From positions 160,001 through 224,000 of IMG/VR virus record IMGVR_UViG_3300012346_000380: a stretch of 64,000 nt of DNA; one strand, given 5' to 3'. Every line of letters begins with the position of its first letter. Position 1 is the stretch's first letter. The notes beneath the pieces were generated by a model, which saw only the letters and a list, made by a program, of their open reading frames with translations, searched no databases and was not told the origin of the DNA. Source of the DNA: a virus (lineage: Duplodnaviria > Heunggongvirae > Uroviricota > Caudoviricetes). A program made the translations under genes and the position numbers. Shown piece by piece: positions 48,741 through 49,994 of this stretch.

Positions 48741-48771
48741 AAAAAAAGCTCAATTCTAAGAACTGAGCTTT
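48741..48771 (-). terminator. Terminator closing the tRNA/ncRNA operon
   Basis: Minus strand AAAGCTCAGTTC-TTA-GAATTGAGCTTTTTTT. Confidence 0.75.
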
Positions 48772-48775
48772 AGTG

Positions 48776-48848
<73 letters not shown>

Positions 48849-48850
48849 AT

Positions 48851-48920
48851 TTGGGTAGGTCAGACGCGTTCTGCCTACCGAGACCTTGTCGTTGACTTTC
48901 GTCAGAGCGGACCAAGACAC
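48851..48920 (-). ncRNA. Candidate structured RNA in the tRNA-Gly leader
   Basis: Minus CTTGGTCCG...TGAC-GAAA-GTCA...CGACAAG, then the GGTAGGCAG/CTGACCTACC hairpin. Confidence 0.4.
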
Positions 48921-48935
48921 TTTTTAATAATAAGC

Positions 48936-49070
48936 AGGATGGGCTTTTATACGTGCTCTACCAACTGAGCTACTCTGAACGTGCCACTTAAGGCTGTGTT
49001 CAAAGGCCGGATTCGAACCGACGACCACGAGGTTAACAGCCTAGTTTTTATGGATTGCTGGAACCATCCT
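48936..49070 (-). ncRNA. CAGCAA cassette A: circularly permuted tRNA-Asn(GTT)-like RNA
   Basis: AGGATGG/CCATCCT closing stem; order is anticodon arm (CT GTT AA), T arm (GTCGG TTCGAAT CCGGC), acceptor 3' strand, 17-nt linker, acceptor 5' strand, D arm. Confidence 0.8.
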
Positions 49071-49086
49071 TGTATAATTAATAAAC

Positions 49087-49143
49087 GGAATACACATTGG
49101 TTTGAGTAAAAGTCAAAGTTTGTAAATTTGCTGTAGGTATTCC
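49087..49143 (-). ncRNA. CAGCAA cassette B: isolated tRNA-Lys(TTT)-like anticodon stem-loop
   Basis: GGAATAC/GTATTCC stem, CTA-CAGCAA, TTTGA-CTTTTAC-TCAAA. Confidence 0.65.
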
Positions 49144-49153
49144 AATAATTTTC

Positions 49154-49293
49154 AGGTTTCTATTGTTTTGACCAGCGCGTCTACCAATTTCGCCACACTC
49201 CAATTTGATTTAAATTTCGTTGGAGAGGTAGGACTCGAACCTACACGTCTTTCGACACCGGTTTCTTATAGAATTAATTGCTGTAAGAAACCT
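49154..49293 (-). ncRNA. CAGCAA cassette C: circularly permuted tRNA-Leu-like RNA
   Basis: AGGTTTC/GAAACCT stem; ACCGG, long variable arm GTC-GAAA-GAC, GTAGG TTCGAGT CCTAC, CTCTCCA, linker, TGGAGTG, Leu-type D arm GGCGAAATTGGTAGACGC, CTGGT. Confidence 0.8.
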
Positions 49294-49302
49294 TTAATGT
49301 TT

Positions 49303-49467
49303 TTATTTTACAGTCGTTGTATCAACTGTAACAGTGTCTACTTGTGCAGAATCAACCTGAACTGCTGTAGAATCAGCTGTTTCAGTTTTTGAAGTTGCTC
49401 CATTACCACAAGAAGCGATTGAGATTGTTGCTACGATAGCTGCGATTGCTAAAAATACTTTTTTCAT
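49303..49467 (-). CDS. Small Bacteroidota-type lipoprotein (54 aa; not in the ORF track)
   Basis: MKKVFLAIAAIVATISIAS-C-GNG lipobox; DS/DT-rich tail. Confidence 0.75.
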   Translation of the reverse strand: MKKVFLAIAAIVATISIASCGNGATSKTETADSTAVQVDSAQVDTVTVDTTTVK

Positions 49468-49503: not shown

Positions 49504-49532
49504 ATTATACCCTTAAAGTTGGCTTTGTTTCA
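49504..49532 (-). promoter_or_regulatory. Middle-type promoter TGAAAC-N17-TATAAT heading the lipoprotein-ncRNA-tRNA operon
   Basis: Exact motif and spacing. Confidence 0.6.
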
Positions 49533-49536
49533 AAAA

Positions 49537-49713
49537 TTAAGCCTCTTTGTTTTTCTCAGAAACATCAACTCTTACTGCTTGAGCTAAAGCTTTAATATCT
49601 TGCATTGCTTTACGAACTCTGGTTCCAGCTGCTTTGTTTCCTTTTTCGAAAAATTTAGTTGCGTCTTCTTTGATTGAGTTAAGAATCTCTTCGATCTGAT
49701 TTAAATTTTGCAT
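49537..49713 (-). CDS. Histone H1-like (Hc1-family) nucleoid protein (58 aa; not in the ORF track)
   Basis: Read manually: ...KEDATKFFEKGNKAAGTRVRKAMQDIKALAQAVR..., with the KF.EKGNKAAG.R.RK signature. Confidence 0.8.
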   Translation of the reverse strand: MQNLNQIEEILNSIKEDATKFFEKGNKAAGTRVRKAMQDIKALAQAVRVDVSEKNKEA

Positions 49714-49861: not shown

Positions 49862-49938
49862 AAGAGAGTTAGGACCTGAGACTTCTGCTATCTAGAATTT
49901 CTGCTGCTCCGTCCATACTCTTAGTCTTTTAAAAAAAC

Positions 49939-49994
49939 AGGATGCTATGTTTTGCTTTTCCATATAAAGTTTTTAAATTTGCTGGAAGCATCCT
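49939..49994 (-). ncRNA. CAGCAA cassette D: short payload with a weak hairpin
   Basis: AGGATGC/GCATCCT stem, TTC-CAGCAA, ATTTAAAAAC spacer like cassette B, CAAAACATA 3' linker like cassette C. Confidence 0.6.

Follow-up and report, generated by a model that had tools for sequence, protein, structure and literature searches.

The stretch of DNA analysed here (64,000 nt, referred to as the window) corresponds to bases 160001–224000 of IMG/VR record IMGVR_UViG_3300012346_000380, a 256,444-bp phage with direct terminal repeats, whose genome carries 27 ordinary tRNA genes, including tRNA-Leu(UAA) and tRNA-Leu(UAG). The non-coding gap between a small, lipoprotein-like open reading frame (ORF, 49303–49467) and a tRNA-Gly gene (48775–48848) is occupied by an element that we call cassette B (49293–49154, minus strand); a gene for an Hc1 histone H1-like protein (49537–49713, minus strand, Pfam E = 3e-22) is found just upstream of it. 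A first-pass annotation, made from the letters of the window, had described the element as a permuted class II, Leu-like tRNA opened at the anticodon loop. The comparative analysis reported here suggests that cassette B is probably a non-decoding RNA of ~138–140 nt, which displays a tRNA-Leu body and behaves, in the manner of a Y RNA, as the partner of a Ro60-like protein.

Anatomy of cassette B

Every segment listed in the first-pass annotation was found where it had been placed, on the minus strand between 49293 and 49154. In the 5'→3' direction, the 3' half of a class II tRNA comes before the 5' half, the two being linked by a capped acceptor hairpin, and a 7-bp stem closes the whole of cassette B. 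The 5' strand of this closing stem (7 nt, 49286–49292) pairs at all seven positions with its 3' strand (49155–49161), and an eighth pair (A-U, 49293/49154) can be formed. Two nucleotides past the stem there is the motif CAGCAA (49278–49283), followed by an A/U-rich joiner (49263–49277), whose last six bases (49263–49268) are a remnant of anticodon-loop positions 33–38 and match at five of six positions the loop of the phage's own tRNA-Leu(UAG). On the other side, C32 is followed by an A-rich 3' joiner (49162–49170, 9 nt in all), which is A-rich across 167 members of the family described below. We refer to the closing stem, the CAGCAA motif and the A-rich 3' joiner as the handle; the same handle is common to four elements of the window and to two more at 12.5–12.74 kb of the genome.

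Between the two joiners lies the tRNA body. The 3' strand of the anticodon stem (positions 39–43, 49258–49262) pairs with its 5' strand (positions 27–31, 49171–49175) at five of five positions, one of them G-U, so that the stem is re-formed from the two halves and the handle is inserted between nucleotides 32 and 33, in agreement with the earlier description of a scaffold grafted at the anticodon loop. The 13-nt variable region (49245–49257), a class II hallmark, consists of a 3-bp hairpin with a 4-nt loop and has U48 as its last base; it is followed by a canonical T arm with a 5-bp stem and a 7-nt T loop (49228–49244) and by the acceptor hairpin (49196–49227), made of the 3' strand (49221–49227), A73 and an 18-nt loop (49203–49220), and the 5' strand (49196–49202). 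The acceptor stem is paired at six of seven positions, the single mismatch, already noticed in the first reading, being U-U. The segment 49176–49195 provides U8, G9, a class II D arm (3-bp stem and 11-nt loop with A14, A15 and G18 G19) and G26. Thus, all the features of a class II tRNA-Leu body are present, namely the 3-bp D stem with a long D loop, the long variable arm, A15:U48, G18 G19, the T loop, the 7-bp acceptor with its one U-U and A73, and the bases engaged in tertiary contacts (U8, A14, A15 with U48, G18 G19, T54 with A58) are all in place. On the other hand, the anticodon loop is broken by the handle, the acceptor end is capped by the 18-nt loop and CCA is not encoded.

When the two halves were re-ordered in silico, ARAGORN recognised a tRNA-Leu of 84 nt, whether a dummy loop was supplied or the handle was taken as a 41-nt intron, which bears out the assignment to a permuted class II, Leu-type tRNA; the anticodons that the program gives for rotated sequences shift with its placement of the "intron" and are not identities. 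Moreover, a 24-mer spanning the D arm and the 5' strand of the anticodon stem recurs without change in genuine tRNA-Leu genes of over 120 bacterial genomes; many of these are Bacteroidota, and several tRNA-Leu isoacceptors are represented. The variable region is identical (13/13) to that of the phage tRNA-Leu(UAG) (genome 244189–244270). The first reading had called the D arm and the variable arm typical of tRNA-Leu. In its native order the sequence escapes detection: in the window, ARAGORN and Rfam at gathering score see only tRNA-Gly and tRNA-Ala, and ARAGORN reports no transfer-messenger RNA (tmRNA). Permissive Rfam matches in the window (HPnc0260, SpF41 and others) were discarded as chance matches to parts of tRNAs, and at gathering score 16 related loci gave tRNAs only.

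The folding energy of the single sequence is not significant (z = −1.3), and the minimum free energy (MFE) fold, at −31.5 kcal/mol, misses the cloverleaf; the cloverleaf-plus-handle form reaches −23.9 kcal/mol. The MFE fold is dominated by a competing 9-bp hairpin (49292–49284 with 49268–49260, minus strand), in which the 5' strand of the closing stem pairs with bases just upstream of the anticodon stem. This raises the possibility of a conformational switch, in which that strand would pair alternately with the 3' end or with these upstream bases and so gate binding or processing. The advantage of 7.6 kcal/mol over the cloverleaf form speaks for a switch, as does the fact that some close relatives, inspected by eye, can form seven of the nine pairs; however, only three or four pairs are left in more distant Leu-type members, and the hairpin may merely follow from the resemblance of the loop remnant to the 3' strand of the closing stem. 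We regard the switch as very unlikely.

Relatives in rotated and normal order

Pattern scans of IMG/VR with a stem filter returned ~180 distinct elements sharing the architecture of cassette B, and 39 of these, from ~25 phage contigs, have a Leu-type D arm. Since a MAFFT alignment misaligned the acceptor hairpin and the 3' closing strand, pairs were counted by a script at fixed offsets from T- and D-arm anchors, and no covariance model was built. The acceptor helix occurs in 27 sequence versions, with 95.2% of the cells paired against a shuffle mean of 47.7% and a maximum of 60.8%, whereas the loops capping it range from 4 to 23 nt. The T stem, in 13 versions, is 100% paired and the T-loop consensus, which formed part of the search pattern, is kept. 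The anticodon stem shows 26 versions with 91% of the cells paired; this test is weaker because the offset of the stem was itself searched and, against a matched null including the searched offset, 16 of 26 perfect stems versus 20% are only moderately above chance. As for the closing stem, found in 20 sequence versions, 44 of 50 pattern hits that had not been selected for a stem pair at 7/7 positions, compared to 5.8% with shuffled strands. The invariance of CAGCAA in these family sets is partly a product of the search design, but the motif is found again in unrotated relatives that adjoin the gene of the Ro60-like protein described below.

Other parts of the body are maintained to different extents. 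Of the 39 Leu-type relatives, 22 (parsed region of at least 13 nt) retain a hairpin in the variable arm, though with different stems, while in the rest the region measures 5–10 nt, and in the closest relatives of cassette B it is shortened to 5–6 nt; the variable arm is therefore common but dispensable. A15 and the terminal U48 are kept in all parsed relatives, A15 being fixed by the search pattern. The remnants of the anticodon loop are of UAG-, UAA- or AAG-type.

Cassette B itself is carried unchanged by two other phage contigs. In the related phage of locus L059, a B-type cassette stands at the same position, in the order Hc1 gene, cassette B, cassette C (a handle RNA described below) and tRNA; it keeps the Leu-type D arm, the T arm and the anticodon stem, whereas the variable region is shortened and the acceptor changed. 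Thus, the comparison of payloads at orthologous positions that the first reading had recommended shows that the Leu type is kept. In GenBank phages, a blastn search with the 1.15-kb locus found ordinary tRNA matches only and no relatives. These data bear on the simplest alternative, by which the element would be a functionless, decayed duplicate of a rearranged tRNA-Leu, or an assembly artefact. It could be put forward in its favour that the native sequence goes undetected as a tRNA, that the acceptor has a mismatch and that the folding energy is not significant. Nevertheless, an identical copy occurs in two other contigs, dozens of diverged relatives carry compensatory changes in every helix, and position and Leu type are kept at L059; the relatives do not represent one recent clone, because their stems differ. 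The random decay that had been named beforehand as the sign of a non-functional duplicate was not seen, and both L059 and the 39 relatives show maintenance instead. The pattern of substitutions indicates that the helices of cassette B are under selection and rules against a decayed duplicate, which we consider extremely unlikely.

A second group of relatives came from a control phage, G049, in which the Rfam tRNA model matched two "tRNAs" with inserts of 48 and 54 nt in the anticodon loop. These inserts, placed in normally ordered tRNA bodies, are the handle turned inside out, with an A-rich strand, a hairpin replacing the closing stem and CAGCAA. A targeted scan yielded 48 distinct unrotated forms with class II D arms. 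Normally ordered genes with the inverted handle stand at the G049 locus (L472 2272–2155, 1800–1690 and 1604–1490, minus strand) and at L481, L373, L515, L521 and further loci. In these genes the handle interrupts either the anticodon loop or the 26/27 junction; a CCA end is present in some, and an undisturbed anticodon hairpin (Leu UAA, Tyr GUA) in others. To a tRNA finder they would look like tRNAs with introns of 45–55 nt. The unrotated RNA of a 425-kb phage (L481) aligns collinearly, segment by segment, with rotated cassette B, the handle lying between C32 and U33 in both. By this alignment, cassette B is a tRNA-Leu body that carries a handle in its anticodon loop and is written in one of the possible circular permutations. 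Since the same body and handle occur in both topologies, the constant part is the body plus the handle and not the position of the RNA ends. Consequently, the analogy drawn earlier with the tethered halves of a cleaved tRNA does not capture the essence of the element, as the same handle is found at the same place in normally ordered bodies, where its stem is capped by a loop.

Permuted Leu-type modules (T arm, acceptor hairpin and class II D arm) were also observed on scaffolds without CAGCAA, at L126, L190, L187, L211, L219 and L200; at L219 the D arm is still followed by a complete Leu(UAG) anticodon arm.

Permuted tRNA genes that give working tRNAs are known from the red alga Cyanidioschyzon merolae, in which the 3' half lies upstream, a short linker joins the acceptor strands and both ends of the gene fall within the anticodon region; these genes mature through a bulge-helix-bulge, a splicing endonuclease and a circular intermediate. 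Cassette B shares with them the 3' half upstream of the 5' half and the short acceptor linker. It differs in that neither a bulge-helix-bulge, for which no formal search was made, nor such an enzyme was seen, its termini are a plain 7-bp stem with a one-sided conserved loop, the handle is found also on RNAs devoid of a body, and the phage has normal Leu tRNAs. The two-piece tmRNA of some bacteria offers a second natural case of a non-coding RNA with a circularly permuted tRNA-like domain, but cassette B has neither a tag reading frame nor an Ala-type acceptor, and ARAGORN, as said, reports no tmRNA.

The algal precedent makes it worth asking whether cassette B could be a true permuted pro-tRNA, from which the handle would be excised at 32/33, with a phage RNA ligase sealing the ends and RNase P together with 3' processing opening the acceptor loop, to yield a working tRNA-Leu. 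If the handle were removed precisely, the loop left behind would be a canonical one of 7 nt, containing U33 and a Leu anticodon (AAG here, UAA in unrotated relatives); ligases of the Rnl1 and Rnl2 types are encoded by the phage, some unrotated forms end in CCA and, like the handle, the splice motifs of C. merolae occur both as an insert and at the termini. A34, on the other hand, is unusual for a bacterial tRNA-Leu, and the remnant found in close relatives would make a loop of 8 nt instead of 7. Moreover, the implied anticodon that ARAGORN gives for most unrotated forms misfits the Leu-type body (e.g., Pro-type loops), the acceptor is in some cases capped by a tight loop of 4 nt, there are handle RNAs that lack a tRNA body altogether, the phage already has normal Leu tRNAs and no endonuclease for the excision was seen. 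The YrlA RNA of M. smegmatis is cut by RNase P and receives CCA (PMC4201824), which adds a point for maturation. On balance, a pro-tRNA appears quite improbable to us.

A Ro60-like protein and the proposed role of the handle RNAs

The ORFs of 131 element-bearing loci were clustered, and the commonest neighbour, present at 33 of the 131, was a protein of ~480 aa with Pfam domains DUF2828 and DUF7788, a weak match to the VWA (von Willebrand factor A, vWA) domain and an invariant DxSGS metal-site motif. In the phage under study its gene lies outside the window (genome 12761–14185), has two handle RNAs directly after it and encodes a product 69% identical to that of the L456 phage. A profile of the protein searched against the PDB matched Ro60 sequences weakly and in the vWA part only, and for this reason a structure model was made. 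The AlphaFold model (mean confidence score, pLDDT, 79.5), compared to the PDB by Foldseek, had nothing but Ro60/TROVE structures among its 12 best hits, matched along the whole length, with E values from 1e-8 to 5e-5 and TM scores mostly of 0.5–0.6; only vWA-domain matches followed. The top matches were 9KOP and 9L5Y, i.e., the Ro60 of the Thermus phage phiLo. The DUF2828/DUF7788 protein is thus predicted to fold like Ro60.

The gene of this protein and the handle tend to occur in the same genomes. It was found in 16 of the 25 contigs with Leu-type cassettes, and in 7/7 of those at least 90% complete; in 14 of the 28 contigs with unrotated forms, and in 6/8 of the complete ones. By contrast, only one of 30 tRNA-rich control phages has a full-length match to the protein, and this is G049, in which four pattern hits stand beside the protein gene, three of them being readable as handle-bearing tRNA bodies. 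In the genome under study the gene is ~195 kb from cassette B, and the linkage is therefore one of genomic co-occurrence and not of adjacency. The earlier reading missed this candidate partner, a DUF2828/DUF7788 protein of predicted Ro60-like fold encoded elsewhere in the genome. On these grounds we define the family by a 6–8-bp stem, 2–4 nt, CAGCAA, a variable interior, an A-rich strand and the complementary strand, together with a genome encoding the DUF2828/DUF7788 Ro60-like protein. Cassette B shows all the RNA features and this phage encodes the protein.

Genes for an Rnl2-type and a T4 Rnl1-type RNA ligase (genome 4048–4536 and 5771–6361) lie ~6.4–8.2 kb from the Ro60-like gene, and a protein-family search found no RtcB in this genome. 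A sigma-70-family gene is also found within ~8 kb of the Ro60-like gene (the same observation covers L463 4494–5093), while tRNA-Arg, tRNA-Thr and tRNA-Leu(UAA) are located at 1.4–1.6 kb and, with the ligases, resemble an RNA-repair island.

Ro60 and Y RNAs form a conserved RNA-surveillance particle. By analogy, the handle would dock on the ring of the Ro60-like protein, just as Y RNAs bind Ro60 through their terminal stem and the motif next to it. Some RNAs carry this handle but no tRNA body, which argues for a docking module rather than a tRNA-processing signal. The L-shaped tRNA-Leu body would be held out as an effector module for a factor recognising the shape of tRNA-Leu, and could work either as a decoy or competitor for tRNA-acting enzymes or as a tether bringing that factor to the Ro60-like protein, the latter on the model of the Y RNA that tethers PNPase. 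The RNA would be cut from a longer transcript also holding two sister cassettes and tRNA-Gly. The setting may be a conflict over tRNA cleavage and repair during infection, which is made likely by the Rnl1- and Rnl2-type ligases encoded near the Ro60-like gene; a context of tRNA damage and repair has been proposed for the TROVE proteins of jumbo phages (PMC7824862). As for the acceptor end, cassette B has it capped, some relatives close it with tight loops of 4–8 nt, and the unrotated forms leave it free, in some cases with a CCA. It follows that the family as a whole does not depend on aminoacylation, and the ordinary tRNA-Leu(UAA) and tRNA-Leu(UAG) genes of the phage likewise count for a non-decoding role. 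Taken together, these observations make a partner RNA that mimics a tRNA the most likely identity of cassette B, rather than a working or a decayed tRNA.

The closest known system is YrlA (Rfam RF02553), found in bacteria and mycobacteriophages, in which a T arm, an acceptor-like stem-loop and a D arm stand on a Ro60-binding stem with a conserved GNCGAA-type motif and the RNA is bound by Rsr/Ro60 (PMC4201824). Cassette B has the same order of T arm, acceptor-like stem-loop and D arm on a stem made of the RNA ends; the position of its motif in an internal loop beside the terminal stem, and a genome with a ring-type, vWA-bearing Ro60-like protein, are predicted likenesses. The differences are as follows: no match to RF02553 is obtained even at E ≤ 10 (gathering score 69 bits), the motif is CAGCAA and not of GNCGAA type, and no TROVE Ro60 ortholog is adjacent, the distant DUF2828/DUF7788 protein being present instead. 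In addition, cassette B is a full class II tRNA-Leu copy, with variable arm, 5-bp anticodon stem and loop remnant, and its family exists also in unrotated form. Cassette B may thus work like YrlA, but it fails three of the four testable features that define YrlA. In the phage phiLo, Ro60 is accompanied by the RNAs Yrl1 and Yrl2, with a 5'-3' stem flanking a loop with a CGAA motif and no tRNA-like domain described (PMC12135203; PDB 9KOP, 9L5Y). The likeness consists of a phage Ro60-fold protein (predicted here) together with phage RNAs bearing a terminal stem and a short conserved loop motif; however, the phiLo Ro60 is a recognised TROVE protein and its motif is CGAA versus CAGCAA.

Besides these, the Class I RNAs (RF01414), reported only from dictyostelids such as Dictyostelium (PMC7919456), resemble the payload-free handle RNAs of the phage (49939–49994 and 49087–49143, minus strand, and genome 12684–12741), which measure 56–58 nt, have a terminal stem starting with G and a variable interior, and in which the unpaired motif after the stem ends in the same ten bases in Class I RNAs and phage handles. 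Class I RNAs differ in having no tRNA modules, and the RF01414 scores (30.2, 22.1 and 19.0 bits) are all below the gathering score of 41.5; cassette B reaches 22.1 bits and the best phage element (49938–49993) 30.2 bits.

Several observations weigh against a Y-RNA-like partner of the Ro60-like protein. Apart from the departures from YrlA in covariance-model match and motif just described, the DUF2828/DUF7788 protein has no Pfam TROVE match, PF05731 is not found in the 256-kb genome even at E ≤ 10 and the similarity of the profile to Ro60 sequences is confined to the vWA part. The protein gene is far from cassette B, two complete genomes with candidate unrotated forms are without the protein, and the 9-bp 5' hairpin competes thermodynamically with the closing stem. 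The kept remnant of the anticodon loop and A73 (19/39) would be superfluous for a pure mimic of shape and hint at something more tRNA-like. The whole case is, moreover, an inference from sequence. Finally, permuted Leu-type modules stand on other scaffolds in phages with neither the DUF2828 protein nor TROVE: five phages carrying such modules gave no Pfam TROVE match, and the three of them that were in the control set have no DUF2828 protein.

This last point is also the main one in favour of a tRNA-shaped decoy or sponge independent of the Ro60-like protein, in which the tRNA-Leu body would sequester some factor of the host (for instance a nuclease directed at tRNA, a modification enzyme or leucyl-tRNA synthetase) and the handle would provide nuclease-resistant ends or a processing signal for a polycistronic transcript. 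The distance of cassette B from the protein gene and the conservation of the loop remnant and of the bases for tertiary contacts would also be compatible with it. However, an invariant 6-nt motif with an A-rich opposite strand exceeds what end protection would require, the co-occurrence of handle and protein is strong in both topologies, and handle RNAs directly adjoin the protein gene both in this phage and in G049; we therefore hold an independent decoy to be rather unlikely. A further variant would reconcile protein and maturation, both the rotated and the unrotated handle-bearing bodies being pro-tRNAs matured by the Ro60-like protein and the Rnl1/Rnl2 pathway, with excision of the handle at 32/33 and opening of the acceptor cap in the rotated genes, in order to supply decoding tRNAs on demand, e.g., after depletion by a host nuclease. 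With such a pathway, bacterial viruses would have their own equivalent of the permuted and the intron-bearing tRNA genes known from eukaryotes and archaea, but we give it little credence.

For the Y-RNA-like partner that we favour, literature searches (DUF2828, DUF7788, permuted phage tRNA, recent YrlA work) found no paper pairing DUF2828/DUF7788 with partner RNAs. A 2026 preprint on bacterial tRNA mimics, considered as an earlier description, concerns other families. As judged by their sequences, the CAGCAA-handle RNAs are a widespread phage family, present in no paper or RNA catalogue searched, and they would represent a Ro60/Y-RNA kind of system that is new as a variant. New here are the covariation of the Leu-type subfamily, the shared insertion point at 32/33, the loss of the variable arm at the orthologous position, the mosaic with tRNA-Leu(UAG) described below and the controlled counts of co-occurrence. 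The family makes the design readable, with one short handle, interchangeable tRNA parts and both circular permutations, and it bears on the fights of large phages over tRNA cleavage and repair. If the pairing were confirmed, the DUF2828/DUF7788 proteins, also annotated in plants, would gain a function, many phage "tRNA-like" genes missed or mis-called as intron-containing tRNAs would be explained, and it would become possible to test which factor is recruited by the tRNA mimic of a Y RNA, as the payload (Leu, Asn, a Lys anticodon arm) could be swapped with the handle kept constant.

Sister elements, resident tRNAs and transcription context

Three other elements of the window carry the same handle, all on the minus strand. 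Cassette C (49087–49143) has no tRNA body, and its equivalent follows the B-type cassette in L059. Cassette A (48936–49070) has a class I, Asn-type permuted tRNA body and matches the Rfam YrlA model weakly (34.5 bits, gathering score 69); an unrotated look-alike is the G049 gene L472 1800–1690, which also keeps the small local hairpin. The fourth handle RNA (49939–49994, 56 nt, without a tRNA body) lies upstream of tRNA-Ala. The first-pass annotation had noted that the break point differs between cassettes A and B, and in fact in cassette B the handle is at 32/33 and the anticodon stem comes from both halves, whereas cassette A joins through a local hairpin with a 7-nt Asn-type loop. The payloads differ as well, as had been stated, with a Leu-type body in B and an Asn-type body in A.

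From these differences an independent capture of different tRNAs into the same scaffold had been proposed. This is plausible, but exchange with resident tRNA genes fits equally well. While the variable region of cassette B is that of the phage tRNA-Leu(UAG), the anticodon stem is one base off and the D arm, the T stem and the acceptor are all different. Similarly, in phage G001 the D arm of the cassette is identical to that of its own tRNA-Leu(UAG) and the variable region matches at 12/13 positions; in phage G018 the match between cassette and own tRNA is poor. Such a mosaic identity fits an exchange between cassettes and resident tRNAs, or a shared constraint, and does not prove independent capture.

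A consensus scan identified a promoter-like site (49504–49533, minus strand, 11/12 consensus matches), and a terminator-like hairpin (48745–48771, minus strand) lies 3' of tRNA-Gly. The two sites suggest a single transcript including a 54-aa ORF, cassettes B, C and A, and tRNA-Gly.

Structured, conserved leaders of ~70 nt abut the 5' ends of tRNA-Gly (48851–48920) and tRNA-Ala (49862–49937), on the minus strand. The leader of tRNA-Ala is nearly unchanged in L003 and L004, and that of tRNA-Gly is altered in its second half in L004. In the latter, a near-identical phage, the body of tRNA-Ala (L004 3290–3220, minus strand) has given way to another tRNA body, likewise with a UGC anticodon, and tRNA-Gly is followed by ~250 additional bases (L004 2210–1990, minus strand), with the handle cassettes in between unchanged. 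The replacement of a tRNA body next to unchanged handle cassettes thus points to local swapping of tRNA genes.

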